A stretch of DNA of 29,720 nucleotides from Nitrospirota bacterium (GTDB lineage Bacteria; Nitrospirota; Thermodesulfovibrionia; Thermodesulfovibrionales; Dissulfurispiraceae), in NCBI GenBank assembly GCA_040758355.1, contig JBFLWF010000027.1, positions 1 to 29,720 on the forward strand, read 5' to 3'. A program made the translations under genes and the position numbers. The notes beneath the pieces are model-generated. The model saw nothing but the letters and a program-made list of their open reading frames with translations, was not told the DNA's origin and ran no database searches. Position 1 is the stretch's first letter, and every line of letters starts with the position of its first letter. Shown piece by piece: positions 2,371 through 27,737 of the stretch.

Positions 2371-3405
2371 TTGAAAGTAGCGGTATATTACAGCAATGAC
2401 GATGTAAGGATCGAAGAACGGCCTGTTCCCCGTATAAACGACGGCGAGATACTCGTAAAAATGATGGCATCGGGAATCTGCGGTACCGATGTAATGCAGT
2501 GGTACAGGCAGAAAAAGGCCCCGCGTGTTCTTGGTCATGAGATGGCAGGCGAGATTGTCGAGGTCGGAAAAGAGCTATCAGCCATCAGCCATCAGCCATC
2601 AGCATTTAAAGTTGGCGACAGGGTCTTCGTATCTCATCATGTGCCATGTTATAACTGCCGTTATTGCAATAGCGGTAATTATACTGCATGCGAATCGCTG
2701 CACGCCGGGAATTATGAGCCCGGAGGTTTTTCAGAATATATAAGGGTTCCGGCCCAAAATGTGAAATACGGAACTTTCATTCTTCCAGACAACATGACTT
2801 ACGAAGAGGCTGCAATGATAGAACCTCTTGCGTGTGTGGTAGCCGGCCAGAAACATATCGAAATAAAAAGGGGTCAGACAGTTCTCATGATAGGCTCGGG
2901 CATGTCAGGCCTGCTTCACATCCAGATGGCCAAATCAAAAGGAGCTACAGTGGTTGCAACCGATATTAATAAATACAGGCTGGATAAGGCAACGGAGTTC
3001 GGAGCAGACTATGTCTTTGACGCTAATGAATATTCTGCGGAAAATCTTAAAGAGATAAATAAAGACAATCTTGCAGAACATGTCATTGTATGCGCTGGAG
3101 CAAAAAAAGCGGTTAATGATGCTGTATCTTCAGTGGACAGAAAAGGGAAAATACTCTTCTTCGCGGTGCCGGAAGGAGATATAAGCATACCTTCGACAAG
3201 GTTCTGGAGAGACGAGATAACAGCCACATTTTCATACGGAGCCTCACCCGATGACCTCAAAATCGCTATGGAGATGATCCAGAGCGGAACGATTAACGCA
3301 AAAAAAATGATAACGCATATGGTTCCGCTTTCTGACATACAGCGTGGATTCAAACTGGTATCTGAGGCAAAAGAATCATTAAAGGTCGTGATCATCCCTG
3401 ATTAA
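2371..3405 (+). CDS. Zn-dependent medium-chain alcohol dehydrogenase (sorbitol/threonine dehydrogenase-like)
   Basis: GICGTD, GHE, structural Zn motif CYNCRYC...C, EPLAC, GSGMSG Rossmann motif. TTG start. Contains an in-frame heptamer repeat insert. Confidence 0.9.
   Translation: MKVAVYYSNDDVRIEERPVPRINDGEILVKMMASGICGTDVMQWYRQKKAPRVLGHEMAGEIVEVGKELSAISHQPSAFKVGDRVFVSHHVPCYNCRYCNSGNYTACESLHAGNYEPGGFSEYIRVPAQNVKYGTFILPDNMTYEEAAMIEPLACVVAGQKHIEIKRGQTVLMIGSGMSGLLHIQMAKSKGATVVATDINKYRLDKATEFGADYVFDANEYSAENLKEINKDNLAEHVIVCAGAKKAVNDAVSSVDRKGKILFFAVPEGDISIPSTRFWRDEITATFSYGASPDDLKIAMEMIQSGTINAKKMITHMVPLSDIQRGFKLVSEAKESLKVVIIPD
2573..2603 (+). repeat. In-frame 7-nt tandem repeat (AGCCATC, about 4.4 units)
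   Basis: AGCTATC AGCCATC AGCCATC AGCCATC AGC, encoding LSAISHQPSA. Confidence 0.95.
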
Positions 3406-3412
3406 TAAACCC

Positions 3413-4771
3413 TTGAAAATATTCTTTTCGGGCATAGGCGGAAGCGGTGTGTCGGCAATAGCAGGCTTTATGGCTGACAAGGGCCACATTATCTCAGGCT
3501 CAGACAGGGCATTTGATAAAAACCCAGAGCATCCTTTATATAAATTGCTCAAATCAAAGGGCATCTGCATAGTTCCTCAAGATGGCAACGGGATTGACAG
3601 CTCCTTTGATTTTTCGGTATTTAGCACAGCAGTTGAACATGACCAGCCGGAGTTTCTAAAAGCAAAGTCTTTAGGAATTCCCATAAAGACAAGGCCTGAG
3701 TATCTTTCTGAAATAGTACTGGACTTTAAGACAATAGCTGTAGCAGGGACAAGCGGAAAGTCGACCACATCAGGGATGCTTGCATTCCTGATGCAAAAGT
3801 TCGGATTAAACCCGAATTTCATAGGCGGAGGAAGAGTAAAACAATTCAAGACAGGGACAAACCCGGGCAACTCAATCACGGGAAGCTCAGATATTCTCGT
3901 CATCGAGGCTTGCGAATCTGATGGTACGATTGTCAATTACAAGCCGGAGCACTCGATAATCCTGAACCTTGACTTAGACCATCACTCGATAGACAAAACT
4001 GCCATGATGTTTGAGACACTTGTTAAAAATACAGCAGATAAAATTGTTGTCAATGCAGATGATGATAATCTCAAAGATATCGACATAAAAGACACGATCA
4101 CCTTTTCCATAGATAGCCCATCAAATTACAAGGCTGATAATATTATTTATAAGCCTTTCAGCACAGACTTTTCATTAAAAGAAACAAAATTCAATCTTTC
4201 CATTCCCGGCAGGCATAATCTCTACAATGCCCTTTCATGCATTGCAATCCTGTCCGAAACGGGAATACCTATTAAAGATATTGCAGGCGTATTGCATGAA
4301 TTCAAAGGAATCGAGAGGCGGTTTGATATTCACCTGAATGACGGGAAACGACTTGTCATCGACGACTATGCGCATAATCCGCATAAAATATCATCCCTTA
4401 TGCAGACAATGAAAAACATCAAAGAAAAAATCTGCTACATATTTCAGCCTCATGGATTTGCACCAACACTAATGATGAAGAACGAATATATTGAAGCATT
4501 CACAGAAAATCTCCGCGATACCGACCACCTTATACTCCTGCCAATATTCTACGCAGGAGGCACTGTCAGCAAAGACATCTCAAGCCATGACCTTGCAGAT
4601 GGAGTAAAGGCTAAAGGGAAATCCGTTGAGGTTGTTGAAGACAGAAATGTAATTTTAAAACGACTGAATGACCAAATCAATGGATATAATAATTATGTCA
4701 TCTTTGGAGCAAGGGATGAGACGCTTTCAGACCTTGCGAGGGGAATAGCTGATTTAATCCGTTCTGCTTGA
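3413..4771 (+). CDS. MurC/Mpl-family Mur ligase (stand-alone paralog)
   Basis: GIGGSGVSAIA, SGSD, AVAGTSGKSTT P-loop, EACESD, DLDH, GIERRF, DDYAHNP, FQPH. Confidence 0.85.
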   Translation: MKIFFSGIGGSGVSAIAGFMADKGHIISGSDRAFDKNPEHPLYKLLKSKGICIVPQDGNGIDSSFDFSVFSTAVEHDQPEFLKAKSLGIPIKTRPEYLSEIVLDFKTIAVAGTSGKSTTSGMLAFLMQKFGLNPNFIGGGRVKQFKTGTNPGNSITGSSDILVIEACESDGTIVNYKPEHSIILNLDLDHHSIDKTAMMFETLVKNTADKIVVNADDDNLKDIDIKDTITFSIDSPSNYKADNIIYKPFSTDFSLKETKFNLSIPGRHNLYNALSCIAILSETGIPIKDIAGVLHEFKGIERRFDIHLNDGKRLVIDDYAHNPHKISSLMQTMKNIKEKICYIFQPHGFAPTLMMKNEYIEAFTENLRDTDHLILLPIFYAGGTVSKDISSHDLADGVKAKGKSVEVVEDRNVILKRLNDQINGYNNYVIFGARDETLSDLARGIADLIRSA

Positions 4772-6001
4772 CACATTCGGCATTCCGCCTCTTACTGTTT
4801 GAACAATAATCAAGCCCGCAAGAAAAAACAAAGCCACCGACAGCACTGCAGGACGCTGGCTTCCGAAGGTTGATGATAAATAGCCGAAGACGAGAGGGCC
4901 TAAAATAGCCGATGACTTGCCGACGAGGGAATAGACTCCGAAATATTCCGATTCCTTCCCGTCAGGGATAAACTGTGTGTAGAATGCCCTTGTTGCTGCC
5001 TGAACAGTGCCGAGACCCAAACCTGCAATAGAGGCAATTATAAAGAAATGTGTTTTAATTTGAACAAAAAATGCTGCAATTGATACGGCAATCCACATGA
5101 CCAAAGACAGGATGACCACTTTTTTGGGTCCCCAATAATCTATCGGCTTTGCCATCAAAAAAGCTCCGATAAGTGCCGTAGCCTGGACAATAAGATACAT
5201 GCCTATTAATTCTTCAGGTTTAAATTGGAGGGTCGTTGCAGCGAATATGCTCGAAAAGACTATAACAGTATTCACTCCATCCTCATAAATGAGATATGCC
5301 ATTAAAAATTTCCTCTGTTCTTTATTAGCCCAGATTTTTTTTAATGTCTGCCATGTATACCTAAGTCCATCCATTGCTGCACCGCATAAGGTAGACGAAG
5401 TACCCATTATGAAATCACCCCTTTTTACATCCGGCGGTAAAAATAAAAACGCAGGCAGGGAAAAAATACCGAAGAACATAGCTACCATAGGCCATGTCAT
5501 GCTCATGAACCCCTGTTTTATCAAAAACAGAGCCAGCAATAAAGAGATTATGGAACCTGCATATCCAACTCCAAAACCCCACGCCGATACCCTCCCCTGA
5601 TGCGTTGTTTCGGTTATCTCCGGCAAAAATGAATTATAAAAAACAAGACCGCCCTCCATGCCTATGTTGGCAAGGACAATAAGGATAAATCCTTCGATGA
5701 CCATTCCTTTGTGAAGAAAATAAAACGAAACAACAGATGAAATACAAAAGAGGGTATAAAAGATGAGCAGCCTCTTTCTTATCCTTGCGTAATCTGCTAT
5801 CCCGCCGAGAAATGGCGAGCTTATGGCCACAACTGCCATGCTTACTGCTATTGCCCTTCCCCACCATAGATCACCGAGACCTGTTTCATTGCCGACTATC
5901 ACATTCGCATAATAGACAGGAAAGATCACAGCAGCTATAACGGCAGAGTAGCTCGAATTGGCAAAATCAAATAGACACCATGAAAGGATTTTTCTATTCA
6001 T
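4754..6001 (-). CDS. MFS transporter (UMF1/BtlA/Atg22-like)
   Basis: SWCLFDFANS, SPFLGGIAD, FYNSFLP, GRVSAWGFGVGY, EYFGVY; about 12 hydrophobic segments. Confidence 0.88.
   Translation of the reverse strand: MNRKILSWCLFDFANSSYSAVIAAVIFPVYYANVIVGNETGLGDLWWGRAIAVSMAVVAISSPFLGGIADYARIRKRLLIFYTLFCISSVVSFYFLHKGMVIEGFILIVLANIGMEGGLVFYNSFLPEITETTHQGRVSAWGFGVGYAGSIISLLLALFLIKQGFMSMTWPMVAMFFGIFSLPAFLFLPPDVKRGDFIMGTSSTLCGAAMDGLRYTWQTLKKIWANKEQRKFLMAYLIYEDGVNTVIVFSSIFAATTLQFKPEELIGMYLIVQATALIGAFLMAKPIDYWGPKKVVILSLVMWIAVSIAAFFVQIKTHFFIIASIAGLGLGTVQAATRAFYTQFIPDGKESEYFGVYSLVGKSSAILGPLVFGYLSSTFGSQRPAVLSVALFFLAGLIIVQTVRGGMPNVSSRTD
5385..5411. repeat. 27-nt palindromic element inside the central loop of the MFS gene
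   Basis: CATAA-GGTA-GA-CGAAG-TACC-CA-TTATG: nested inverted repeats with a C(GAA)G core; length is a multiple of 3. Confidence 0.55.
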
Positions 6002-6701
6002 CTATTAACTTTTTGAGCGCCTCTTTTGCTGCAGACATCTGGGCATCCTTCTTGCTCTTTCCTGTGCCGCTTCCATACAACCGACCGTTTATATAAACCT
6101 CTGCAGTGAAGATCTTTTTGTGTTCTTCCCCTTCCTGTTTTACAATCCTGTATTCGGGCAGGACGCCAAAGAGGCTCTGGCTTTTCTCCTGCAATTCGCT
6201 CTTGAAATCATACCCCTCTTTTTTGGAGATTATGCTATCAATCTTATCGCTGAAAAGCCTTAATATCACAGACTTTGCAGTCCCATAATCGCTGTCTAAA
6301 AATATGGCTCCAAATAAGGCTTCCACTGCATCGGAGAGAATGGACCTCTTGTGGCGGCCTCCTGTTGATTCTTCTCCCCTGCCGAGTCTTAGATATTTTC
6401 CGAGTGAAAGCCTTGCGGCTGTCTCAAAAAGCACCGACTCCTTTACCAGGTAGGATTTCATCTTCGACATGTCTGCCTCTGTTAACGGGATATCGTTAAG
6501 GAAAAGGGACTCAGCAATAACAAGACCTAAAACAGAGTCGCCGAGAAACTCGAGCCTTTCATTGTAGCGGGGAGCTTCGTCTGGATTCTCATGATGGTAT
6601 GATTTGTGCGTGAGGGCATCTACCAATAAATCCTTATTGCTAAAGCGATACCCTAAAAGGTCCTCAAGCCCCTCTATATCTTTTGAATAATAGGCAGGCA
6701 T
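5994..6701 (-). CDS. rnc: Ribonuclease III
   Basis: [18 protein letters not shown] signature, [15 protein letters not shown]-terminal dsRBD. Start placed at MPAYY (6701), overlapping the fabF end; the longer start at 6779 is unlikely. Confidence 0.95.
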
Positions 6702-7914
6702 TGGTTCCACCAAAACCGAATGAATTGGACATTGCGCACTCAACATCCATCTGTTTTGCCTTATTGGGTGCATAGTCAAGGTCGCATTCGGGATCGGGAT
6801 TTTCGAGGTTTATTGTCGGAGGCACAATGTTGTTATGGATGCTCAATATGGAGAAAATCGCTTCCACTCCGCCTGCAGCGCCGAGGAGATGTCCTGTCAT
6901 GGATTTTGTTGAGCTTACGCATAACTTATATGCGTGTTCGCCAAAGACCGTTTTAATTGCCGCTGTCTCCAGCTCATCTCCATACTTTGTCGATGTTCCA
7001 TGTGCATTGATATAATTTACCCTTTCCGGTTCAATCCCGGCATCCTTTAAAGCCGCCCTCATGCAACGTGCAGCACCCTCTCCTTCAGGGGCCGGAGTTG
7101 TAATGTGATAGGCATCGCTGGACATCCCATAGCCTATAATCTCGGCATATATCTTTGCTCCCCTGTTAAGGGCACTCTCAAGGCTCTCAAGGATTATCAC
7201 TCCCGAGCCTTCTCCCATGACAAAACCGTCCCTTCCGGCATCAAATGGTCTGCTTGCTTTCTCGGGTTCGTCATTTCTTGTTGACAATGCCTTCATGACA
7301 GCAAATCCGCCGACTCCGAGGGGAGTTATAACAGACTCGGTTCCGCCTGCAATCATTACATCGGCATCGCCACGCTGGATTATCTTAAATGAATCGCCGA
7401 TGGAATGGCTGCCTGTTGCGCAAGCCGTGACAGCAGCAGAATTGGGTCCCTTTGCACCGAATTTTATGGATACATTGCCTGATGCAAGGTTGATAATGAG
7501 CATAGGGATAAAGAAGGGGGATATCCTTCTGTATCCCTTTTCGAGATATATCTTGTGGTAATGCTCGATGGCCGGGAGACCTCCCATGCCGGCACCGATA
7601 ATGACACCGACCCTTTCGGCATTCTCATCGGTAATCTTCAGTCCCGAATCCTCAGCAGCCATTGTGGCAGCAGCCATGGCAAAATGGATAAACCTGTCCA
7701 TCTTTTTTATCTCTTTTGCCTCGATATATGGGGCGGGGTCAAATCCTTTAACCTCGCCGGCAATACGCACAGGCATCTGAGAGGCATCAAACTGCGTTAT
7801 AGGGACTATCCCTGATCTGCCTTCAAGGGCAGACTTCCATGAAGCCTCCACACCTATTCCAAGGGGCGTTACAAGACCAAGCCCTGTGACTACTACACTT
7901 CTTTTTTCTATCAT
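6664..7914 (-). CDS. fabF: 3-oxoacyl-ACP synthase II
   Basis: VVVTGLG, TACATG catalytic Cys, [29 protein letters not shown]. Confidence 0.97.
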
Positions 7915-8141
7915 CCTACTTTATTCTTGATGTAATCTATTGCGTCTTTGACCTTTGCTATCTTCTCTGCATCCTCGTCAGGTATCTCGATATTGAATGC
8001 CTCTTCGAATGCCATAACGAGCTCAACGGTATCAAGGGAGTCTGCACCGAGGTCTTCAACGAATGATGCCTCCGGTGTTACCTCTGATTGGTCAACGCCA
8101 AGCTGCTTCGATATGATCTCCTTTACTTTTTCGTCTACCAT
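7911..8141 (-). CDS. acpP: Acyl carrier protein
   Basis: [25 protein letters not shown] Shine-Dalgarno. Confidence 0.97.
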
Positions 8142-8162
8142 TATTACCTCCGTTTTATTATT

Positions 8163-8223
8163 TAGGCTATAGGCTATAGGCTATAAAAATAAAATTATAC
8201 CTATAACCTATTGCCCATTGCCT
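8163..8223. repeat. Inverted pair of 7-nt tandem arrays between fabG and acpP
   Basis: (AGGCTAT)x3, AT-rich spacer, then ACCTATA ACCTATT GCCCATT GCCT, a degenerate reverse complement of the left unit. Confidence 0.85.
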
Positions 8224-8225
8224 GC

Positions 8226-8960
8226 TTACATATACATTCCGCCGTTTACGTGTATCACCTGACCTGTTACATAGCCCGATTCGGGCGATGCAAAGAATGC
8301 AACTGCACTGGCGACATCGTCCACAGTACCGAATTTATTCATGGGAATAGTCTTGAGCATCTCCTGCCTTACATTTTCAGGCAGTGCATCTGTCATGGCT
8401 GTCGTAATAAAGCCGGGCGCAACGGCATTCACTGTAATCCCCCTGCTCGCATATTCCTTTGCAATGGTCTTTGTCAGGCCGACCATTCCTGCCTTGGAAG
8501 CGCTGTAGTTGGCCTGTCCCGGATTGCCCATAAATGCTACAACAGAGGCGATATTGATGATCCTGCCGTAGCGCTGCTTTGACATAACTTTAACAGCTTC
8601 CTTTGAACAAAGGAAAGTCCCCTTCAGGTTGATATTCATTACGGCATCCCAGTCTTCCTCTTTCATCCTGAGCAAAAGGCCGTCCCTTGTAATTCCTGCA
8701 TTGTTGACAAGTATCTCGACCTTGCCGAATTCCTTAACAGCGTTTTCAAAAATGGCAGCCACATCCGATGAATTTGAGACATCCGCCTTTAGTGCAATGC
8801 TCTTTATGCCTATTTTCTCCAGCTCCGAGGATGTTTCTTTTGCGATGTCCATATTTACATCAACAACAACGATATTCACCCCGCGCCTTGCAAGTGATTC
8901 TGCTATGGCCTTGCCGATGCCCCGGCCTCCGCCTGTTATTAGTGCTGTATGTCCATTCAT
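8226..8960 (-). CDS. fabG: 3-oxoacyl-ACP reductase
   Basis: TGGGRGIG, NNAGITRD, YSASK, NAVAPGFI, VNGGMYM. Start at 8960 follows a GGAGG Shine-Dalgarno. Confidence 0.96.
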   Translation of the reverse strand: MNGHTALITGGGRGIGKAIAESLARRGVNIVVVDVNMDIAKETSSELEKIGIKSIALKADVSNSSDVAAIFENAVKEFGKVEILVNNAGITRDGLLLRMKEEDWDAVMNINLKGTFLCSKEAVKVMSKQRYGRIINIASVVAFMGNPGQANYSASKAGMVGLTKTIAKEYASRGITVNAVAPGFITTAMTDALPENVRQEMLKTIPMNKFGTVDDVASAVAFFASPESGYVTGQVIHVNGGMYM

Positions 8961-8973
8961 AATAACCTCCACA

Positions 8974-9067
8974 TTGAGTCATTAAGTAATTAAGTTATTA
9001 AATAATTGAGTTGCTGAGTTATTACTTTTAGTTATTGACTTAATGACTTATTAACTTAATTACTTAA
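8974..9067. repeat. Inverted pair of 8-nt tandem arrays directly upstream of fabG
   Basis: TTGAGTCA TTAAGTAA TTAAGTTA TTAAATAA TTGAGTTG CTGAGTTA, 14-nt spacer, TGACTTAA TGACTTAT TAACTTAA TTACTTAA. Confidence 0.9.
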
Positions 9068-9150
9068 CCAAAAAGTCGGCTATCATTGTAGCAGAGAACC
9101 GACCCCATTTTCCAGTCATTTTTGTCCATAATCTGTAAAGAGAAACTTAA

Positions 9151-9323
9151 CAAGGAGTCGGCGGGCAGGATTCAAAGACTTTGCACATAAGATTTGGTAA
9201 CAGCATTATCTTGTATCCGTCATCTACTACTATGGCATCTATAAGATTAAACATTTGTAATCTCACAATTACACATGAATAAGGACTTTGTAAAGGCTTT
9301 GAAGACTGCCTGCCGACTCCTTG
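9151..9323 (+). other. 173-nt long hairpin element (structured RNA or MITE-like)
   Basis: Arms 9151-9185 and 9289-9323 give 30 Watson-Crick pairs, 2 G-T and 3 G/A mismatches. Inner stems: 9208-9215/9240-9247, 9219-9223/9232-9236 and 9256-9261/9268-9273. Confidence 0.65.
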
Positions 9324-9345
9324 ATTACTGGTCATTGCACTTTCA

Positions 9346-9374
9346 TTGACACATAACGCTTTTCCTGTTATATT
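9346..9374 (+). promoter_or_regulatory. Sigma70 promoter for glgC-DUF488-ligase
   Basis: TTGACA (9346-9351), 17 nt, TATATT (9369-9374) preceded by TGn (extended -10). Confidence 0.7.
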
Positions 9375-9411
9375 TTTTCTTGTCATGGAAAGGATGATAA
9401 AAAGAACCGAC

Positions 9412-10638
9412 ATGAAGGATGTGCTTGCCATCATACTTGCAGGAGGCAAGGGAGAACGTCTGCATCCCATGACCATTCACAGGGCAAAGCCTGCTGTCCC
9501 CTTCGGCGGTAAGTACAGGATCATAGACTTCACCCTCAGCAATTGCATCAACTCTGATATAAGGAAAATAGCAGTAATTACACAGTACAAATCCCTTTCC
9601 CTTGACAGGCATCTTGCACTGGGATGGCAAAACCTCTTTAATCCAGAACTGGATGAGTTTATCATCTCCATTCCGCCGCAACAAAGGGTAAGTGAAAGCT
9701 GGTATACAGGAACAGCAGATGCCGTATATCAGAATATCTATTTTATTGAAAAGGAAGAGCCTCCCTATCTGCTCATCCTGTCAGGAGACCATATATACAA
9801 AATGGACTATTCAGAAATGCTCGCCTTTCATGTAGGAAAAAAGGCAATCGGAACAGTTGCAGCAATAGAGGTGGATAAGAAGATCGCATCCTCCTTCGGC
9901 ATCATGGAAGTTGACAGCGAATGGAGAATCATAGGTTTTGAGGAAAAACCAAAAAAACCGAAGACAATACCCGGAAATCCAAACCAGTGTCTTGCATCCA
10001 TGGGCGTTTATATATTCAATACAGAGGCAATGGTAGAAGAGCTGAAGATAGATGCTGCAAAGACGTCTGCCCATGACTTCGGCAAGAACATAATACCTGA
10101 TATGCTTAAATCAAACAAACTCTTTGCATATAATTTCAGGGATGAAAATAAGAAAGAGGCAAAATACTGGAGGGACGTAGGGACCATAGACGCCTACTGG
10201 GAAGCCAATATGGATCTCGTTTCTGTGGATCCGTTATTAAACCTCTATGATAAGGACTGGCCCATAAGGACATATCAATGCCAGTACCCGCCTGCCAAAT
10301 TCGTATTTGCACAGGAGCAGAAAGGCGGAAGGCTCGGAATATCGCTGGATTCCATCGTCTGCGATGGGTGCATCGTTAGCGGCGGAAGGGTGCAGAGTTC
10401 GATCCTGTCTCCAAATGTCAGGATAAACAGCTGGGCATCTGTAAAGGAATCCATCCTCATGGAAAATGTGGAGATAGGGAGATATGCAAAAATAAAAAGG
10501 GCAATCATTGACAAAGATGTATACATCCCTCCAGAGACGGTAGTCGGATACAATCTGAACGAAGACAGGAAAAAATTTCATGTGAGCCCGAACGGCATAG
10601 TGGTCATTCCGAAGGGAACGGATTTCAGGAAGCTTTGA
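9412..10638 (+). CDS. glgC: Glucose-1-phosphate adenylyltransferase
   Basis: ILAGGKGERL, RAKPAVPFGGKYRIIDF, WYTGTADAVYQN, SGDHIYKMDY, ASMGVY, DFGKNIIP, YWRDVGT. Start could also be 9385 or 9394; 9346 is the -35 box, not a start. Confidence 0.96.
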   Translation: MKDVLAIILAGGKGERLHPMTIHRAKPAVPFGGKYRIIDFTLSNCINSDIRKIAVITQYKSLSLDRHLALGWQNLFNPELDEFIISIPPQQRVSESWYTGTADAVYQNIYFIEKEEPPYLLILSGDHIYKMDYSEMLAFHVGKKAIGTVAAIEVDKKIASSFGIMEVDSEWRIIGFEEKPKKPKTIPGNPNQCLASMGVYIFNTEAMVEELKIDAAKTSAHDFGKNIIPDMLKSNKLFAYNFRDENKKEAKYWRDVGTIDAYWEANMDLVSVDPLLNLYDKDWPIRTYQCQYPPAKFVFAQEQKGGRLGISLDSIVCDGCIVSGGRVQSSILSPNVRINSWASVKESILMENVEIGRYAKIKRAIIDKDVYIPPETVVGYNLNEDRKKFHVSPNGIVVIPKGTDFRKL

Positions 10639-11054
10639 AAAAAATATATACTCTCGGGACAAGCAGAAGGAGCGAGGAGGATTTCATAGAAATCCTCCTC
10701 TTTTATGATATAAAAACCGTCATCGATGTCAGACGCTTTCCAAAAAGCAAGCTGCAAATATTCAATAAAGAATACCTGCAAGACCTTTTAGAGAGAGAAG
10801 GGATGTCCTACATCTTTTTAGGTTTCGAGCTCGGAGGGTTTAGAAAGGGCGGGTATGAGGCTTATGCAAATACCGATGAATTCAGAGATGGCATCGATAA
10901 GCTGGAAAGGGCTGTCAATAATAATTCCGTAATAATATGCGCTGAAAGGTTTCCGTGGAAGTGCCACAGGAGATGGATAGCAAGGGAGCTTCACAGAAGG
11001 GGATGGCTGGTAGAGCATATAATAGATAAAGGAAAGGTCTGGGTGCCTAAATGA
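10635..11054 (+). CDS. DUF488 family protein
   Basis: IYTLGTSRRS, IDVRRFPKS, ELGGFR, ICAE..PWKCHR; 4-nt overlaps with both neighbours. Confidence 0.88.
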   Translation: MKKIYTLGTSRRSEEDFIEILLFYDIKTVIDVRRFPKSKLQIFNKEYLQDLLEREGMSYIFLGFELGGFRKGGYEAYANTDEFRDGIDKLERAVNNNSVIICAERFPWKCHRRWIARELHRRGWLVEHIIDKGKVWVPK

Positions 11055-12778
11055 AATTTAAAAGACTCGTTGAATACTTTGAAAGGCTTGAGGAGACCAC
11101 AAAACGTCTTGAGATGTTCGATATTCTTGCAGGGCTTTTTAAAGAGGCATCCGGCGAGGATATAGACAAGATAATCTATTTAAGTCAGGGGCAGCTTGTG
11201 CCGCCGTTTCACGGCCTCGAAATAGGCATATCGGAAAAGCTTCTTATACGGGCAATATCAGATGCAACAAATACGCCGACCAAAAGGGTAGAACAGACCT
11301 TCAGGCACACAGGCGACATGGGAAGGACAGCAGAGGAGCTTAATAAGAGAAAAGGCTATGACCTTACCGTGAAGCAGGTTTATGGAGAACTCATGGATAT
11401 TGCACAGACAGGTGGCGCTGGAAGCGTAGAGAAAAAAATAAGCCTTCTTTCAAATCTATTTAAAGGTGTTTCTCCAATAGAGGCAAAATACATTGCGAGG
11501 TTTGTCATAGGGAGATTAAGGCTCGGGATAGGAGACCCCACGGTGCTGGAGGCCCTTGCCCTAAGCATCGGAAATCGTGAACTGAGGCCTGAACTCGAAA
11601 GGGCATATAATCTGTGCTCTGATTTAGGTCTTGTTGCTAAAACACTTATAGACAAAGGCATAGAAGGCGTAAAAAAATTCAAGGTTCAGGTTGGTTATCC
11701 CATAAGGATGGCATTATGCGAAAGGCTTTCATCATCAGAAGATATAATCCAGAAAATAGGCAGAGCGGCAATAGAGGCAAAGTATGACGGATTCAGGGTC
11801 CAGTGTCATAAGGATGATGAGAATGTGGAACTATTTTCAAGGAATCTCGAAAGGACCACCCACATGTTCCCTGAAATTACGATGGCCATGAAAAAATACA
11901 TAAATGCAAAAGAGGCAATCATCGAAGGAGAAGCACTTGCATATAATGAAGGTACCGGAGAACTATTCCCATTTCAGGTAACAATCCAGAGAAAAAGGAA
12001 ACACGGCATAGAGGAACTGTCAAAAGAGCTTCCGTTAAAATTCTTTGTCTTTGATTTGCTCTATCTGGACGATGTCGACTACACGGAAAAGCCCTTTTCA
12101 GAAAGGAGGAAAAAGCTTGAGTCCATAATTAAAAAGAATGAAGTTATCGAGCCTTCGGAGATGTTTATAACAGATGACCCATCAAGAATATTTAAATACT
12201 TTGAAGACACTATTGAAAGGGGACTTGAAGGGGTCGTGGCTAAAAGGCTTGACGCCCCCTACTCTGCCGGTGCAAGGAACTTCAACTGGATCAAGCTTAA
12301 AAGAAGCTACAAAGGAGAACTGGCAGATACAATAGATGTCTGCATTGTCGGATATTTCAGAGGAAAAGGTGCAAGGGCAAAATTCGGCGTTGGTGCACTT
12401 TTAGGTGCAGTTTATGAGCCTGAGACAGATACGTTTAAAACCATAAGCAAGATAGGCTCTGGATTTAAAGAGGATGAATTCTTTGAGCTGAAAAAGATGC
12501 TCGATGAAATAGCCCTCAAACATAAACATCCGAGGGTTGATTCTGCAATCGATGCCGATGTATGGGTTGAACCCAGATATGTTATTACTGTTATGGCCGA
12601 CGAGATTACACGCTCTCCTGCCCATACAGCAGGAAAGGACAAGGATGGAATCGGTTATGCCCTGAGATTTCCGAGATCAACCGGTTTTATAAGGTTCGAC
12701 AAAAATCCCGAAGATGCAAATAGCGTCAAAGAGATTATCGAGATGTTCAAGCAGCAAAAGCAGGTGAGCGTAGTTTAA
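11051..12778 (+). CDS. ATP-dependent DNA ligase with N-terminal DNA-binding domain (archaeal/LigB-like)
   Basis: LRLGIGD, motif I EAKYDGFRVQCHK, IIEGE, FFVFDLLY, EGVVAK, WIKLK, IGSGF, ALRFPR. Confidence 0.93.
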   Translation: MKFKRLVEYFERLEETTKRLEMFDILAGLFKEASGEDIDKIIYLSQGQLVPPFHGLEIGISEKLLIRAISDATNTPTKRVEQTFRHTGDMGRTAEELNKRKGYDLTVKQVYGELMDIAQTGGAGSVEKKISLLSNLFKGVSPIEAKYIARFVIGRLRLGIGDPTVLEALALSIGNRELRPELERAYNLCSDLGLVAKTLIDKGIEGVKKFKVQVGYPIRMALCERLSSSEDIIQKIGRAAIEAKYDGFRVQCHKDDENVELFSRNLERTTHMFPEITMAMKKYINAKEAIIEGEALAYNEGTGELFPFQVTIQRKRKHGIEELSKELPLKFFVFDLLYLDDVDYTEKPFSERRKKLESIIKKNEVIEPSEMFITDDPSRIFKYFEDTIERGLEGVVAKRLDAPYSAGARNFNWIKLKRSYKGELADTIDVCIVGYFRGKGARAKFGVGALLGAVYEPETDTFKTISKIGSGFKEDEFFELKKMLDEIALKHKHPRVDSAIDADVWVEPRYVITVMADEITRSPAHTAGKDKDGIGYALRFPRSTGFIRFDKNPEDANSVKEIIEMFKQQKQVSVV

Positions 12779-16586: not shown

Positions 16587-16625
16587 AAGTGGAATTTTTG
16601 AATCTTTATATGTTAATTATAATTC

Positions 16626-16856: not shown

Positions 16857-16861
16857 GTTTG

Positions 16862-17203: not shown

Positions 17204-17261
17204 GGAAATATTATACTACACTTCACTTTAAAGCCAAATTTATGATAAGGTGAATAAATTA

Positions 17262-17327
17262 GTCCATCGTTCATTTTAAAAATAAAATTGCGCTAAAAGA
17301 TGAACGGTGAACAAGGAACTATGAACC
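17262..17327. repeat. Inverted pair of 7-nt tandem arrays (TGAACnn)
   Basis: GTCCATC GTTCAT, spacer, TGAACGG TGAACAA GGAACTA TGAACC; one more GATGAACT follows the palindrome at 17521. Confidence 0.7.
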
Positions 17328-17328
17328 A

Positions 17329-17517
17329 AATCCAGTGATAAGGATGGGTCCCTGAAGTGAATAGCGATGTTTTGGTAACAGTTCTTTGCGACTGGAGCGT
17401 TAAACAGCCGCAAGTGTTTGAACCCGAAGGGTGAGTTTTGCGGCTGTAGCGTAAGGAGCATTAGAACTGTCAAAACAGAGCTTCTGAACGAAAGAGACTT
17501 ATCCTTATTGCTGGATT
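17329..17517 (+). other. 189-nt nested palindrome (MITE/REP-like element or structured RNA) upstream of argG
   Basis: 25-nt outer arms AATCCAGTGATAAGGATGGGTCCCT / AGAGACTTATCCTTATTGCTGGATT (20 Watson-Crick, 4 G-T, 1 mismatch). Inner stems TGTTTTG/CAAAACA, ACAGTTCT/AGAACTGT, ACAGCCGCAA/TTGCGGCTGT; apex ACCC-GAA-GGGT. Confidence 0.8.
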
Positions 17518-17545
17518 ACAGATGAACTAAACTTGGAGGAATGAG

Positions 17546-18739: not shown

Positions 18740-18746
18740 AAGTCAA

Positions 18747-19868: not shown

Positions 19869-19878
19869 GAGGAAAAGA

Positions 19879-20163
19879 TTGGCAAAAAGATTTATAGACA
19901 TATTGCGCATGCTCGCAAAGGATCTTATAGAAAAGGGCTATGATGCGGATGACGCACTGAAAAAGATCAGCGTCTTCGACATAGATTTTCTAACGGTAAA
20001 GGAAGAGCTTTTGACCCTCGAGTTGTCGCAGTACATAGATGATGCAGAACTGGACACCATAAGGGCGCTTCTTTCGTATGTCCTGATGAAGGAAACGGAA
20101 CTTGATACCGAAGAGATATACGCCTTCATATTCGGAAGGGGAAGACAGATAACATGGAACTAA
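19879..20163 (+). CDS. Small acidic protein, possibly Smg/DUF494-like
   Basis: AGGAGG Shine-Dalgarno and TTG start; occupies the smg position between dprA and topA. The family call rests on synteny only. Confidence 0.55.
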   Translation: MAKRFIDILRMLAKDLIEKGYDADDALKKISVFDIDFLTVKEELLTLELSQYIDDAELDTIRALLSYVLMKETELDTEEIYAFIFGRGRQITWN

Positions 20164-20179
20164 TGGAGGACTTGAGAAA

Positions 20180-22486
20180 TTGAAATCCCTTGTTATAGTA
20201 GAGTCGCCTGCAAAGGCAAAGACCATCAATAAAATACTGGGCAAAGAGTTCGGCGTTAAGGCATCCATCGGCCATGTAAAGGACCTTCCCAAAAAAAAGC
20301 TTGGAGTGGATGTCGACAAAAATTTCGAGCCATATTATGAAATCATTCCGGGCAAGGAGAAGGTAATAAAGGAACTGAAAAGCGAGGCGAAAAAGGCAGA
20401 AAAGATTTACATAGCAACAGACCCCGACAGGGAGGGAGAGGCCATCGCGTATCATATAGCAGAAGAAGTAAAGCCGCCCAAGAATTCCAAAAAGATTTAT
20501 CGGGTTACATTCCATGAAATAACAGAGCGTGCTGTAAAAGAGGCTATACAGAATCCCGGCGAAATTGACATTAATAAGGTCGAGGCGCAACAGGCCCGCA
20601 GAATCCTCGACAGGCTTGTGGGCTATAACCTCAGCCCGTTTCTCTGGAGAAAGGTCAGAAGGGGATTAAGCGCAGGAAGGGTTCAGTCCGTTGCAGTAAA
20701 GCTTATAGTAGACAGAGAAAGGGAAATCGAGTCATTCAACAAAGAGGAATACTGGACAATAGAGGCCCTTTTGTCTCCTAAAACAGAGGGGGCACAATTT
20801 TGGGCAAGACTCTACAAATACAACGACTCCCTTGTCATCAACCGTGATGCCGAAGAGGGAAAGCGTTTTCTCATTACCAACGCAGAGGCCGCACAGCAGA
20901 TTGCGGATGAAATTAAGGACAAGGAATTTTATCTCTCTAAAATAGATAAAAAACTCAGGAAGAGGTCACCCTCTCCACCCTTTATTACAAGTACATTGCA
21001 GCAGGAGGCGGCAAGGAGGCTGAGATTCCCTGCAAAAAAGACCATGATGATAGCACAGCAGCTTTACGAAGGAATAGAGCTTGGAGAAGAAGGCTCTGTG
21101 GGCTTGATTACATATATGAGGACAGACTCCTTCCGCATAGCTCCTGAGGCACAGGAATGGGCAAGGGACTTGATAGAGAAAAAATTCGGAAAGGATTACA
21201 TCCCTGAAAAACCGCCCCATTACAAAAGCAAGGGGAGCGCACAGGAAGCCCACGAAGCAATAAGGCCGACATATCCGGACAAATCTCCGGAGGCTGTAAA
21301 AAAGTTTTTATCCAAAGACCAGTATAACCTTTATACCCTTATATGGAACAGGTTCATCGCAAGCCAGATGGCCCCAGCGCAACTGGAGCAGACGACGTAT
21401 ATTATAGAGTTAAGAGAGGGGGCCAAAGGTACAGAACTCAGGGCATCGGGTACTGTTATCAGATTTCCGGGATTTATGGCATTGTACACGGAAAGCAAAG
21501 ACGAAATAGAGGAAGAAGAAGGCGGAATCCTGCCTTCCATGAAGGAGAATGACATCCTCAAACAACAGGAGATAAAGCCGGTACAGCATTTCACGCAGCC
21601 TCCGCCGAGATATACAGAGGCTACTCTTGTAAAGGCCCTTGAGGAAAAGGGCATCGGAAGACCGAGCACTTATGCAGCAATACTGTCCACAATTCAGGAC
21701 AGAAAATATGTGGAAAAAAATGAGGACAGGCGTTTTATGCCTACAGAACTCGGAATTGTTGTGAACGACCTTCTTGTTGAGAAATTTCCTGAACTGATAG
21801 ACATAGGATTTACTGCAAAGATGGAAGACGAACTCGATGAAATTGAGAATGCAAAGATGAAGTGGGTCAAGGTAGTTAAAGATTTTTACAAACCCTTCAG
21901 CCGTGATCTGTCAGAGGCATCAAAAGACAAAGGAAAAGTAAAACCACAGGATATCCCAACAGAAGAGGTTTGCGAAAAATGCGGTTCCCCAATGGCCATA
22001 AAATGGGGAAGGCATGGAAGGTTCCTTGCATGTACAGGCTATCCTCAGTGCAAAAACACAAGACCATTGGAAGGCGGCAACGGCAAACAGGTCGCAGAGC
22101 AGACCGTGACAGAGGAGATATGCGAAAAATGCGGCGCTCCAATGGTCATAAAGAGCGGGAGATTCGGGAAGTTCCTTGCGTGTTCAAAATACCCTGAATG
22201 TAAAAATACAAAGCCTATTTCGACAGGGGTAAAATGTCCTCTGGATGGCGGAGACATTGTGGAGAGAAGGTCGAAGAGAGGAAAGGCATTCTGGAGCTGC
22301 AGCAATTATCCGGAATGCAAGTTTGCGATGTGGTATAAGCCTGTGCCAAAACAATGCCCAAAATGCAGTGCATCATTCCTTGTCGAAAAGTGGAACAAGG
22401 CCGGAGAGGTGTTTCATGTCTGCCTGAATAAAGGCTGCGATTACAAAGAAGAGATAAAAAAAGAGGAGACGGCAAGCGAAGCATAA
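20180..22486 (+). CDS. topA: DNA topoisomerase I with C-terminal Zn ribbons
   Basis: LVIVESPAKAKTI, ATDPDREGEAI, SAGRVQS, LITYMRTDS (catalytic Tyr), AQEAHEAIRPT, GIGRPSTY, repeated C4 ribbons. Confidence 0.97.
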   Translation: MKSLVIVESPAKAKTINKILGKEFGVKASIGHVKDLPKKKLGVDVDKNFEPYYEIIPGKEKVIKELKSEAKKAEKIYIATDPDREGEAIAYHIAEEVKPPKNSKKIYRVTFHEITERAVKEAIQNPGEIDINKVEAQQARRILDRLVGYNLSPFLWRKVRRGLSAGRVQSVAVKLIVDREREIESFNKEEYWTIEALLSPKTEGAQFWARLYKYNDSLVINRDAEEGKRFLITNAEAAQQIADEIKDKEFYLSKIDKKLRKRSPSPPFITSTLQQEAARRLRFPAKKTMMIAQQLYEGIELGEEGSVGLITYMRTDSFRIAPEAQEWARDLIEKKFGKDYIPEKPPHYKSKGSAQEAHEAIRPTYPDKSPEAVKKFLSKDQYNLYTLIWNRFIASQMAPAQLEQTTYIIELREGAKGTELRASGTVIRFPGFMALYTESKDEIEEEEGGILPSMKENDILKQQEIKPVQHFTQPPPRYTEATLVKALEEKGIGRPSTYAAILSTIQDRKYVEKNEDRRFMPTELGIVVNDLLVEKFPELIDIGFTAKMEDELDEIENAKMKWVKVVKDFYKPFSRDLSEASKDKGKVKPQDIPTEEVCEKCGSPMAIKWGRHGRFLACTGYPQCKNTRPLEGGNGKQVAEQTVTEEICEKCGAPMVIKSGRFGKFLACSKYPECKNTKPISTGVKCPLDGGDIVERRSKRGKAFWSCSNYPECKFAMWYKPVPKQCPKCSASFLVEKWNKAGEVFHVCLNKGCDYKEEIKKEETASEA

Positions 22487-22489
22487 TAC

Positions 22490-23185
22490 ATGAAGCAACC
22501 CTTTCTTATCGGCATTGGAGGCGCCCACAGCGGTGCAGGCAAGACAACCATAGCAGTTGCAATTTTAAAATATCTGAAAACCCATCCACCCATCTACCCA
22601 TTCACCCACTCACCAAAAATCGGAGCCATAAAATACACAAAGACAGCCTTTTATTCATCCATCATAGACGACAAAAGTATTCTCAGCCAGGAAGACAAAG
22701 ACACCAAAAGGCTACTTGATGCAGGAGCAGAAGAAGTTTTATGGGTTCAATCGCCTGCAAATGAGATCAATGAAGTCCTGCCAATGGCAATTGACAGGCT
22801 CTCCCATCTCGACGGCATAATCATTGAGGGCAATAGCGCAATTGAGTTTTTAAAGCCGGATGTTGTAGTATTTATAGCTGATGTTTCTAAGGAGAATATT
22901 AAGCCCTCAGCCCGGAGAATACTGAAACAAGCTGACATTGTTATTGAAAAAGGGTCGTCGCATTACTCGTCAAAAAACATACATGAATTGATACACTGCA
23001 TAGAGATGACAGCGAAGAAAAAAGAAATCGAAAATATTTTAAAGACACGGTCTGCCGAAGGCAGGATTACATGCAGCGATGCAAGGACAATCGCCGAAGA
23101 ACTGGGGGTTCCTTACAAAGAAGTCGGCAAGACTGCCAATGAACTGAAAATAAAAATAAAGAATTGTGAGCTCGGCTGCTTCTGA
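22490..23185 (+). CDS. MobB-like P-loop protein fused to a C-terminal Cys-containing (C...CELGCF) domain
   Basis: GGAHSGAGKTT Walker A, KDTKRLLDAGAEEVLW, IIEGNS; tail EGRITC...KIKNCELGCF. Confidence 0.7.
   Translation: MKQPFLIGIGGAHSGAGKTTIAVAILKYLKTHPPIYPFTHSPKIGAIKYTKTAFYSSIIDDKSILSQEDKDTKRLLDAGAEEVLWVQSPANEINEVLPMAIDRLSHLDGIIIEGNSAIEFLKPDVVVFIADVSKENIKPSARRILKQADIVIEKGSSHYSSKNIHELIHCIEMTAKKKEIENILKTRSAEGRITCSDARTIAEELGVPYKEVGKTANELKIKIKNCELGCF
22580..22614 (+). repeat. In-frame 8-nt tandem repeat (ACCCATYC-like, 4 units)
   Basis: ACCCATCC ACCCATCT ACCCATTC ACCCACTC ACC, encoding THPPIYPFTHSP. Confidence 0.9.
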
Positions 23186-24000
23186 TGGGTACTGTACTTT
23201 TTGAATTGGCCCTTACCTTTTATTTCGCTGCAACAATTATAAGCATCGTCGACATATTCAAGGGCGGGAAGGAATCATCGAAGCTGATGATCTTCGCCAC
23301 CGGAGCCGGATTCGCAATCCACTCAATAAGCATAATCTACAGATACATAGCAGTAGGCCACCTTCCGATAACGAGCATGCATGAGGCATCGTCCTTCTTT
23401 GCATGGTGTATTGTCCTTATATTTTTCTTCCTCGAATACAGGTATAAAATCGGCATAATGGGCTCGTTCATCCTGCCCATAGTCTTCATACTTATGCTTT
23501 CTTCATCAGTCTTTCCGAGGGAAATCCGCCCGCTTACGCCGGTGCTCCAGAGCTACTGGCTTCCTGTACACACATTCCTGGCATTCTTAGGGAATGCGGC
23601 ATTTGCAGTGGCATGCGGCATCGGGATAATGTATCTGATTCAGGAGCATTATCTGAAATCAAAGCATCTCGGCGATCTCTTCAAGAGACTTCCGAGCATT
23701 CAGGTTCTCGACGAGATAAACTACAGGCTTATTACCATCGGATTCCCTCTCCTTACCCTTGCCATAATTACAGGAGCGCTATGGGCAGAAAGCGCATGGG
23801 GCAGCTACTGGAGATGGGACCCCAAAGAGGTCTGGTCGCTCATAACATGGTTTATCTATGCCCTTGTCCTTCACGTCAGGCTCACTGCAGGCTGGAGGGG
23901 AAAGAGGGCAGCCATTTTGTCCATAATCGGATTTCTGGCGATACTTTTTACATTCTTTGGCGTTAATCTACTTTTAAAGAGTCTGCATGCATTCTCATGA
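23185..24000 (+). CDS. ccsA: Cytochrome c biogenesis protein CcsA/CcsB (system II, HemX position)
   Basis: Multiple transmembrane helices, LQSYWLPVH, WWD domain GALWAESAWGSYWRWDPKEVW, terminal LHAF. Confidence 0.92.
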   Translation: MGTVLFELALTFYFAATIISIVDIFKGGKESSKLMIFATGAGFAIHSISIIYRYIAVGHLPITSMHEASSFFAWCIVLIFFFLEYRYKIGIMGSFILPIVFILMLSSSVFPREIRPLTPVLQSYWLPVHTFLAFLGNAAFAVACGIGIMYLIQEHYLKSKHLGDLFKRLPSIQVLDEINYRLITIGFPLLTLAIITGALWAESAWGSYWRWDPKEVWSLITWFIYALVLHVRLTAGWRGKRAAILSIIGFLAILFTFFGVNLLLKSLHAFS

Positions 24001-25271
24001 AAATTCTCATTATAGGACTGAATCATAAGACAGCTAATGTTGAAACGAGAGAAAGGCTTGCCTTTAATGGGCCCAAGCTTGAAGAAGGAGTTTTTGGCCT
24101 AAAAAAAATACCCGAGGTAAAAGAGGTTGCAGTACTGTCAACATGCAACAGGGTGGAACTGTATACCTGTGTGAGCAACACGGCTTCAGCAGCAGAGAAT
24201 ATTAAGAACTTCCTTTCCGGATTTCATAATGTAGCAAGAAGCGATTTCGAGAAATCCCTTTACATTCACACCGATACCGATGCCATAAAACATATATTAA
24301 GGGTTGGCTCAAGCCTCGATTCCATGGTTGTGGGAGAGCCACAGATCCTTGGCCAGCTTAAGGATGCATTCGACTTTGCCCTCAGCAAAAAGACAACCGG
24401 TATTCTTCTGAATAAGTTAATGAAAAAGGCCATATCCACTGCAAAGAGGGTGAGGACAGAGACGAGGATTGCCGAGAATGCAGTCTCCATAAGCTTTGCA
24501 GCAGTGGAGCTCGCAAAGAAGATATTCACAGACCTTTCTGGAAAATCATTCATGCTATTAGGTGCAGGAGAGATGGCAGAGCTTGCAGCACGCCACCTCG
24601 TAAACAACGGCGTTACGGATGTGAAGGTGGCAAACAGGACATACGAGCGCGGATGCGAACTGGCAAAAGAATTTAACGGAAAAGCGGTAAAATTTGAAGA
24701 ATTCTTAAATGAATTGATACACACCGACATAGTCATCTGTTCAACAGGCGCATCGACCTATGTCCTTTTAAAGGATCATATGCAAAAGGTAATGAAGGAA
24801 AGGAAGCACATGCCGGTATTCATTATCGATATTTCTGTGCCGAGGAACATAGACCCGGAGATAAATAAAATAGACAACGTATACCTCTATGACGTGGATG
24901 ACCTTCAGGATGTAGTGGACACCAATATCCTCGAGAGAAAAAAAGAGGCTGAGAAGGCAGAAGATATAATAGAGGAGGAGGTCGAGAAATTTACAAAATG
25001 GATGTCATCCCTCGATTCGGTGCCGACTATTGTGGCTTTAAGACAGAAGGCAGAAGAGATCAAAAATGAAGAAATGGAGAAATTCAAGAATAAATTCCCT
25101 GAAATCGATGCGGAAAAGATGAAGGCACTGGAATACATGGCAACAGCTATAATCAACAAGCTCATACACCCGCCCACTGTTGCACTCAAAGAGGATACAG
25201 AAGACAGGGACGAATTGATAGCCATGATAAAAAAATTGTATGGGATAAATGGAGATGAAAATGAAGAATAA
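23997..25271 (+). CDS. hemA: Glutamyl-tRNA reductase
   Basis: [44 protein letters not shown]. Confidence 0.97.
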
Positions 25272-26217
25272 AATCGTTATAGGCACTCGTGGCAGCAAAC
25301 TCGCGCTCTGGCAGGCTGAATGGATTAAGTCTGAACTAAAAAAATTAAATCCCGACTTAGAGATTGAACTTAATAAAATTAAGACCACTGGCGACAAGAT
25401 TCTGGATGTGCCACTGGCAAAAGTAGGCGGGAAAGGGCTTTTCGTAAAGGAGATTGAAGAAGCACTCTTAAAAGGCGAGGCGGATATAGCTGTCCACAGT
25501 ATGAAGGATGTGCCAACAGATTTTCCTGAAGGATTACATCTCGCAGTAATAACAAAAAGAGAAGACCCGAGGGATGCATTTATAACAGCAGTTAGCAGTC
25601 AGCAGTCAGCAAGCAGTCAACAAATAAAGAGCTTTAAAGACTTACCTCAGGGTGCAACTATCGGCACAAGCAGTCTCAGGCGCTCATGTCAGTTGCTCAG
25701 CATAAGGCCTGATTTAAAGATAGAGCAACTCCGTGGAAATCTCGATACAAGACTGAGAAAACTTGACGAGGGTCAGTTCGATGCAATAATCCTCGCTGCT
25801 GCGGGTGTTAAAAGGCTCGGATGGTCGGAGAGGATTACAGAGATCCTTCCTCCTGAGATAAGCCTTCCTGCCATAGGTCAAGGAGCGGTCGGGATCGAAT
25901 GCAGAGTTGATGACGAATTCATAAACAATCTGATTTCACAACTGAATCACAATGAAACCTCGGTATGCGTAAGAGCAGAAAGGGCATTTCTAAAGAAACT
26001 CGAAGGCGGATGTCAGGTGCCAATCGCAGCATATGCAAGATTGATCGATGGCAGAGTTGTAATGGACGGGCTTGTAGGAAGCGTTTCAGGAGACAGGATT
26101 GTAAAAGGCCGGATAGAAGGCACACCGAATGATGCAGAAAACCTCGGAATCAGGCTGGCAGAAGACCTCCTTTCAAGAGGTGCAAAAGAGATACTGGACG
26201 AGGTCTACGGCAGGTGA
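25261..26217 (+). CDS. hemC: Hydroxymethylbilane synthase (porphobilinogen deaminase)
   Basis: [50 protein letters not shown]. Start could also be 25249 or 25255. Confidence 0.97.
25587..25622 (+). repeat. In-frame 7-nt tandem repeat (AGCAGTC) in hemC
   Basis: AGCAGTT AGCAGTC AGCAGTC AGCA AGCAGTC AACA, encoding [12 protein letters not shown]. Confidence 0.92.
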
Positions 26218-27737
26218 AAAAAGGCAAGGTCTATCTCATAGGCGCAGGCCCTGGTGATGTAGGGCTTTTGACAGTAAAAGGCCTGAAATGCCTTCAGAAG
26301 GCCGAGGCTGTCGTATATGATTTCCATCTCAACGCCCAGATATTGAATTACATCAATCACGATGCCGAATTCATATATGCAGGCAAGCGCGGTGGACACC
26401 ATGCAATGACGCAGGATGAGATAAATCAGGCGCTTGTTGATAAGGCAAATGAAGGCAAAATCGTATGCAGATTAAAGGGCGGCGATCCCTTTGTATTCGG
26501 CAGGGGCGGTGAAGAAGCAGAGGTTCTTGTAAATGAGGGTATAGAGTTTGAGGTAATACCCGGTGTCAGTTCTTCCATTGCTGCACCTGCATATGCAGGC
26601 ATTCCATTAACGCATAGGAAATATTCTTCATCCTTTGCAGTTATTACAGGCAACGAAGATATAACAAAGCCAGAAAGCTCCATAGACTGGTCGAAGTTTG
26701 CAAATGGCTTTGACACCCTCGTTTTTTTAATGGGTGTTAAGAACATCGGCGCTATAACTTCAAAACTTATAGAGCACGGCAAGTCTCCAGATACTCCTGT
26801 AGCAGTTGTGAGATGGGGCACAAGGCCTGACCAGAAAACAGTGGTCAGCACCCTGAAAGACATTGCAGGGCTTGTAAAAGAAGAGAATATCAAGCCCCCT
26901 GCTGTAATGGTAATTGGAAATGTGGTCAAATTAAGGGATACATTGAAATGGTATGAAAACAAGCCCCTGTTCGGCAAGCGAATTTTAATCACAAGGGAAT
27001 ACACAAGAGATTATGAAATCCTCGAAGAACTCGGCGCAGAGATATTCGAGTTTCCTACAATAGAGATAGTACCGCCAGAAAGTTACAGAGAATTGGATGA
27101 ATCAATAGATAAGGTAGAAACTTACAACTGGATAATATTCACAAGCGCGAATGGATTCAGATATTTCATGCAGAGGCTTCTCGACAAGGAGAGAGACATT
27201 AGAGATTTAAAGGGCGTCAGGATATGCGCTATCGGAACAAAGACAGCAGAAGCGATAAAAAACTACGGCATCAAAGTGGATTTAATCCCTGAAGAATTCA
27301 CTGCAGAAGGGTTAATAAAAGCCTTCAGCCTTCAGCCTTCAGCCCTCAGCCTTAAAGGATTAAAAATCTTACTTCCTCGTGCTGAGGTTGCAAGGGAAGT
27401 ATTTCCGCAGAAGGTAAGAGAGCTTGGCGGAGAGATAGATACACCTGCTGCATATCGTGCAATCAAGCCTGAAAAGCACGGCAAAAGATTAAAGAGATTT
27501 TTAAAAGAAGGAAGGATTTCTGTTGCAACATTTACAAGCGCTGCTACCTTCAACAATTTCGTGGATATAATGGGCGATGATGCAATAGAGATTTTAAAGG
27601 ATGTAACCATAGCCGTCATAGGCCCTGTGACTGCAAAGGCCATAGAAAAGGCAGGATTAAAAGTCTCCATTATGCCAAAAGAAGCTACTATAAAGGCAAT
27701 GGTTGATGAGATAATCAAATGGGCTGCTAAATCATAG
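26214..27737 (+). CDS. cobA: Fused uroporphyrinogen-III C-methyltransferase / uroporphyrinogen-III synthase (CobA-HemD)
   Basis: [34 protein letters not shown]; then the HemD part [30 protein letters not shown]. Confidence 0.95.
27320..27354 (+). repeat. In-frame 7-nt tandem repeat (AGCCTTC, 5 units) in the HemD domain
   Basis: AGCCTTC AGCCTTC AGCCTTC AGCCCTC AGCCTTA, encoding [11 protein letters not shown]. Confidence 0.95.

Follow-up and report, generated by a model that had tools for sequence, protein, structure and literature searches.

Tandem heptamers lie in frame in the genes of three enzymes within one stretch of 29,720 nucleotides from a Nitrospirota bacterium (contig JBFLWF010000027.1; the whole analysed stretch is called the window), and the question raised by this locus is how such repeats come to be written into housekeeping proteins. 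To our knowledge, no cause has been generally accepted for the abundance of heptamer repeats beyond expectation in bacteria, and we know of no function for the TIGR02436/S23p family of four-helix-bundle proteins. A link between the two would make both testable and would give a candidate source of the repeats.

Heptamer arrays in the window

The following features were located in the window:

2371-3405, zinc alcohol dehydrogenase ORF, host of the AGCCATC array
2573-2603, + strand, AGCCATC array (TRF, period 7, 4.4 copies), dehydrogenase residues 68-78
8163-8225, no strand, gene-less inverted doublet of the ATAGGY family, between fabG-like and acyl-carrier-protein-like genes (labels from translations, not from a family search)
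8972-9067, no strand, gene-less inverted doublet of period-8 arrays (hairpin z = -4.5)
22580-22614, + strand, fourth in-frame array, period 8 (TRF), in a mobB-like gene (22490-23185)
25587-25622, + strand, AGCAGTC array, HemC residues 113-125 (HemC, 25249-26217)
27320-27354, + strand, AGCCTTC array, CobA-HemD residues 369-381 (CobA-HemD fusion, 26214-27737)

The initial annotation had reported in-frame heptamer arrays on the coding strand of three enzyme genes, and the TRF positions and an ORF check bore this out, with all three ORFs intact. TRF gave the HemC array as CAGCAGT at 25586-25611 (3.7 copies), followed by a degenerate tail to about 25622, and the CobA-HemD array as AGCCTTC at 27320-27353 (period 7, 4.9 copies). 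In predicted structures, the HemC array occupies a low-confidence loop after strand 109-113 (pLDDT < 50 at 117-123), and the dehydrogenase array comes after strand 58-65 and before strand 84-87 (block mean 62). The period-8 array of the mobB-like gene had been overlooked in the initial annotation; its unit is identical in the same-genus genome G003. The doublet at 8163-8225 and the arms of cassette L001, one of the gene-bearing cassettes described below, belong to one common family (ATAGGY). Elsewhere, the window encodes an ATP-dependent DNA ligase of the TIGR00574 type (11051-12778, 466 bits) and a multiheme cytochrome c (PF11783; 14324-15796).

Genome-wide census and strand filter

The assembly of this genome (G000; 2.77 Mb, 99% complete) contains 2825 predicted genes, called with our own simple predictor, so that edge and start assignments are rough. 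Over the whole assembly, 298 period-7 and 133 period-8 rows were found among 887 TRF rows, and a periodicity scan gave 312 period-7 and 133 period-8 arrays compared to at most 43 for each of the periods 4-6 and 9-13. In the comparison with codon-shuffled controls that had been named earlier as a check, 216 period-7 arrays were present in the real genes versus 10 and 7 after synonymous-codon shuffles and 0 and 0 after codon shuffles, which excludes a chance origin. The sequence TCAGCnnTCAGCnnTCAGC occurred 132 times in this genome and its reversed control 0 times.

The approximately 445 arrays of 7- and 8-base units comprise 256 inside genes, 129 intergenic ones and 60 at gene edges; the 215 interior arrays fall in 158 of the 2825 predicted genes, about 1 gene in 18. 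Cyanobacterial STRRs, short tandem heptamer repeats, are one period-7 system for comparison. The genome-wide excess of period 7 that marks long heptanucleotide SSR or STRR-like arrays was present here, and the arrays differ from that mainly intergenic class by the 256/445 inside predicted genes. Copy number peaked at 4.5 units both within and between genes, with a length ceiling near 5 units (only 5 of 67 intergenic 7-mer arrays reached at least 5.5), and the phase of the array ends varied. The single heptamer family claimed initially did not hold, the units being dozens of 7- and 8-base words that form a web in which neighbours differ by one or two bases, and that are swapped at one site between relatives.

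Strand counts were strongly skewed (coding to non-coding, AGCAGTC 38:0, AAGGGTC 21:1 and AGCCTTC 13:0). Among the 215 interior units, stop codons occurred only on the opposite strand in 160, only on the coding strand in 13, on neither in 34 and on both in 8. A run of 7-mers passes through every reading frame within three units, and given the 160/215 versus 13/215 stops, the preference for the coding strand is for the most part the outcome of a filter against stop codons; a bias of 6:0 was left over in one stop-free unit. The proposed selection for frame in loops was supported. Among the contigs of four metagenomes, which drop rare variants, 0 of 5 listed indels fell in an array. Two inverted doublets are translated within genes (G000:C45:7805-7878 and C6:92251-92325), and in the former the stop-bearing arm is read through as a variant unit.

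Replacement of arrays between orthologs and paralogs

The dehydrogenase loop has 15 aa here versus 8 aa in the closest orthologs, all of which (10/10) are without a seed for the array. The initially inferred gain of 7 aa was thus correct; its mode, a 21-nt insert, was not, with 33 nt standing in place of 12 nt. The first 25 nt of the array have a single other copy in the genome, which lies at the homologous loop of a paralog with 44% identity. Because the string common to both loops extends over 32 nt, the right flank codons are of the paralog lineage type (FKVGDR, not FKTGDR) and the homologous loop carries an array in 5/5 same-genus paralogs (units of 7, 8 or 9 bases), the array was likely acquired by short gene conversion from this paralog through a short conserved patch. 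Among 17 paralog loops inspected by eye, 9 were judged repeat-derived. The dehydrogenase array therefore offers a concrete event, an apparent move between paralogs. As a general route, paralog conversion was rejected as rare, an array site common to both paralogs being found in 6/75 directed comparisons.

For HemC, 25 of 29 relatives could be parsed. The loop has 21 aa here and 10 aa in 3/25, 12-16 aa in 5/25 and 17 aa in 17/25 relatives, about seven of the last group showing no clear repeat by eye. The units at this site were AATTTCA in same-genus genomes, GGTTCAC or GTTCAAA in others, and yet another in one of the four metagenomes, which hold partial contigs of relatives. For HemD, parsed in 17/29 relatives, the loop of 17 aa equals that of repeat-free relatives (16-18 aa) with no net gain in length, and the loops of other relatives reach 33 aa with different units. 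Equally long loops without a repeat, which the initial annotation had listed as evidence against its reading, therefore occur for HemD, and in part for HemC with its approximately seven loops of 17 aa that lack a clear repeat.

The comparison with G003 covered about 0.84 of 2.37 Mb and gave 71 comparable sites, one row of which is a paralog. The same unit was present at 9 sites, a different unit at 24, and 38 were below the detection score; a site scored as empty in this way often still holds a decayed array. The length difference was 0 at 23 sites and +7 aa at 3, within a range of -37 to +14, and the arrays therefore mostly overwrite loops rather than adding 21-nt blocks. A fixed insertion quantum of 21 nt, suggested by the initial annotation, was rejected as a general rule on these counts. 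Turnover of this kind in the loops of core enzymes offers a fast route of change, here in 158 of approximately 2825 predicted genes.

At certain sites in the G003 comparison, imperfect seeds of 1-2 units were matched by clean, slippage-like gains of +21 or +30 nt. These seed-like empty sites speak for a host microsatellite process, in which reiterated polymerase slippage from chance seeds would be followed by drift and homogenisation and the cassettes would be passengers gaining hairpin arms. The connection of units as one- and two-base neighbours also fits slippage, as does a heptamer excess in many taxa, reported in the available text of PMC4692102. Slippage is nevertheless doubtful as the main source, at perhaps one chance in four by our judgement: the dehydrogenase site has no seed, the ceiling near 5 units holds even in intergenic arrays, and one-unit steps would disrupt essential genes. 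Since a one-unit slippage would frameshift an essential gene such as hemC, each landing was presumably a single step. The earlier argument against independent slippage from chance seeds was supported, and unit families were found genome-wide.

Four-helix-bundle cassettes with inverted arms

Six TIGR02436 matches (TIGR02436 / PF05635) above the curated cut-off were found in this genome, four of them full length and none inside the window. Each gene lies between an array and the inverted counterpart of that array. One of the proteins matches 2gsc (E 2e-16), a solved family member with five chains that is described as a homopentamer. Around the gene of one cassette, a long stem with periodic mismatches was predicted (z = -5.05).

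Flanks were usable in 76 of 80 relatives, drawn from many phyla, and 28/76 cassette loci passed a strict inverted-array test versus 0/71 control windows. The upstream flank was nearer to the reverse complement than to the direct strand of the downstream flank in 87/104 cassette loci. The polarity was common, with the G-rich arm leading in 95/104 cassettes and 31/35 doublets, and of 58 close same-period array pairs 35 were inverted and 6 direct. Arm similarity increased with protein identity (Mantel rho 0.38, 0/300 permutations; 75/104 rows are one clade), and it was still 0.152, compared to 0.039 in the control, at a protein identity of 60-70%, a range in which four-fold sites have reached saturation. 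Arm units track the protein clade across phyla. Slippage would account poorly for the fixed polarity of doublets and for arm units that go with the protein clade.

Of eight sites occupied by a cassette in a relative, three hold a gene-less doublet in this genome and the other five a plain spacer (by eye). The neighbours at the eight aligned sites are protein genes and not the rRNA location of a 23S rRNA IVS. The units of the genome's own cassettes matched 73/445 arrays versus 44 for random words, and own plus relatives' cassette units matched 257/445 versus 136. TCAGC arrays predominate in this assembly (99% complete), yet no TCAGC-armed cassette was found in it; among the relatives, the top TCAGC counts, 106 and 56, belong to the two whose cassettes are TCAGC-armed, compared to 132 in this genome.

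Several loci depart from the usual layout. At L005 (G000:C2:52726-53340), the four-helix gene carries a TIGR04258 suffix domain, with a 9-base array upstream and its inverse translated within the ORF ahead of the suffix domain (by eye). At L006 (G000:C20:34605-34736) and L060, only about 45-53 codons of the four-helix gene are left between two intact arms, and these loci can be regarded as intermediates between cassette and doublet. Next to the cassettes at L002:1-700 and L052 are short, spacer-like repeats of CRISPR-like appearance, found repeatedly to either side. A GxxExxY (PF13366) gene of a nuclease family lies between inverted 9-base arrays in the cassette-type layout (G000:C7:41242-41580); as a driver of the arrays this nuclease was rejected, being found in only 19/151 genomes and not following load.

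The arm duplex was more stable on the sense strand in 51/104 cassettes only, and therefore no RNA-specific signal was seen; selection at the RNA level on arm pairing was rejected for lack of a strand preference. A code from amino acid to base was likewise unsupported: R or L after EGDE goes with the arm class, but the residue changes only twice on the tree and leaves no informative independent pair.

Array load across the order

In sampled DNA from 40 relatives, 87 arrays were found in 991 kb of 26 gene-positive genomes and 5 in 568 kb of 14 gene-negative genomes. Over 151 genomes of the order, TIGR02436 proved to be a gene family that follows repeat load (rho 0.64), with clear exceptions; a search for such a family had been proposed in the initial annotation. 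Family membership confounds this correlation and related genomes are not independent data points; within f6, f8 and f12 the difference vanishes or runs the other way. The median number of TCA-periodic pattern matches was 23 in gene-positive and 0.5 in gene-negative genomes; at least 20 matches were present in 44/85 gene-positive versus 7/66 (in another count 10/66) gene-negative genomes, and 16/85 gene-positive genomes had at most 5.

Five gene-negative high-load genomes, whose existence fits slippage, were searched again (G116, G029, G125, G071 and G085). The very high-load G116 has a broken cassette with a frameshifted four-helix gene (L297:1365-1822) and intact arms, and G029 and G125 gave weak matches to the cassette gene. 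G071 and G085 have hundreds of pattern matches and no PF05635 match.

Units might instead be synthesised at DNA ends, in the manner of telomerase, by a dedicated enzyme (a polymerase or a reverse transcriptase) to which the four-helix protein would be an Avd-like partner. Such synthesis would suit the narrow distribution of array lengths and the kinship to Avd (NF033474, 27-42 bits with a cut-off of 80), and we consider it quite unlikely on the distribution of reverse transcriptases: PF00078 was present in 14/41 genomes and had no match in G000, the RT-rich G007, G021 and G038 are array-poor (0-1 arrays in sampled DNA), and the high-load G019, G022 and G036 have no RT match. In an informal inspection, no reverse transcriptase was noticed next to the cassettes. 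Reverse transcriptase was rejected as the driver on this basis, and the dedicated seeding enzyme suggested by the initial annotation was not established.

Proposed origin of the arrays

The arrays, their loop positions, the stop filter, the replacement of units, the inverted-arm cassettes, the polarity of doublets and the order-wide co-occurrence are directly supported. They are best read together, with about an even chance of being right, as words supplied by cassette arms, spread by short recombination-like copying and filtered by selection on the products. The three window arrays are part of the genome set of approximately 445 runs, of the same kind as the inverted cassette arms. Cassettes would pass through lineages, and their arms and doublets would stay behind as donors. 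The pentameric four-helix protein would bind its arm of 4-5 units, thereby holding unit and length. Arrays could be written into loops by short-patch conversion or by template switching, with a paralog as donor or with microhomology only, each arrival being a single recombination-like copying step that overwrites about 30 bases, and only in-frame, stop-free products would survive. The donor history, the binding by the pentamer and the copying step are the parts that we infer.

A bolder version, which we hold tentatively and consider to have somewhat under one chance in three, has the four-helix-bundle pentamers as specificity subunits of a micro-element system, each recognising a word of 7-8 bases of its own along 4-5 units and guiding host repair to place that word at further sites. 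If true, passing cassettes would keep rewriting the loops of essential enzymes, explaining the bacterial heptamer excess.

Alternatively, the pentamer may bind arrays in DNA or mRNA as selected sites, so that arrays are kept, not merely tolerated, with autoregulation, RNA processing or nucleoid organisation as functions. Conservation of the unit along the protein clade would agree with this, as would the long predicted stem of the arms (z = -5.05), similar to the RNase III-cut Coxiella IVS, and the related Avd pentamer, which is positively charged and touches RNA in the available text of bioRxiv 2023.10.23.563531. Selected binding is unlikely given the unit turnover at one site within a genus, the majority of arrays matching no resident cassette (73/445 match) and the sense-strand arm duplexes, which are no more stable.

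Relation to known repeat systems

The arrays are real and unusual, a variation on the heptamer arrays already known that is tied to IVS-like cassettes. The contribution of the window is a likely paralog-to-paralog copy, a length-neutral overwrite and an order-wide test with exceptions.

REP/RAYT systems have a gene flanked by inverted repeats and gene-less doublets elsewhere. The four-helix gene between inverted repeats and the gene-less doublets of this genome resemble that layout, but the translations of the 11 genes that have inverted arms revealed none that is transposase-like.

Rickettsia palindromic elements are summarised in the available part of PMC10969869 as palindromes of about 150 bp with a conserved peptide. 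They share with the arrays the placement of repeat DNA in frame within unrelated housekeeping genes (158 genes here). The arrays are tandem runs of about 30 nt with many units, read in all three frames and often length-neutral, and neither the palindrome of about 150 bp nor one conserved peptide was found. Avd, the DGR accessory protein, is a pentamer in an RNP according to the available text of bioRxiv 2023.10.23.563531. The kinship lies in the pentameric four-helix bundle; with NF033474 scores of 27-42 bits, below the cut-off of 80, and no PF00078 match in G000, the cassettes do not belong to the DGRs.

The Coxiella 23S rRNA intervening sequence has an S23p four-helix ORF within a terminal stem that is cut by RNase III, and tandem heptamers of varying number directly upstream of the ORF (available part of PMC4990558). 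The cassettes share the four-helix-bundle ORF within a stem and the heptamers beside the ORF. As far as that text extends, they differ in lying between protein genes, in having arrays as both arms, in the hundreds of arm-like words elsewhere in the genome and in a stem that is predicted only. Beyond this one Coxiella case, no paper on a general cassette-array link or on in-frame array turnover was found in the literature covered, which included few subscription journals.

The closest relatives among heptamer repeats are GGGAATC of Xanthomonas and GGGGA(C/T)T of Nostoc (Rehm et al. 2015, PMC4692102, available text). These have one unit family and are 7-11% intragenic, and in Xcc 70 close inverted pairs were counted among 186 repeats. 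They share with the present arrays the period of 7, about four units, the dispersed distribution, the frequent inverted pairs and the lack of conservation at the same genes between species. In contrast to them, the arrays here comprise dozens of units, lie in genes in 256/445 cases, are translated in frame and are replaced between relatives. The available text of PMC4692102 links no four-helix gene to the heptamers; Xanthomonas encodes XCC0516, a solved member of the four-helix family.
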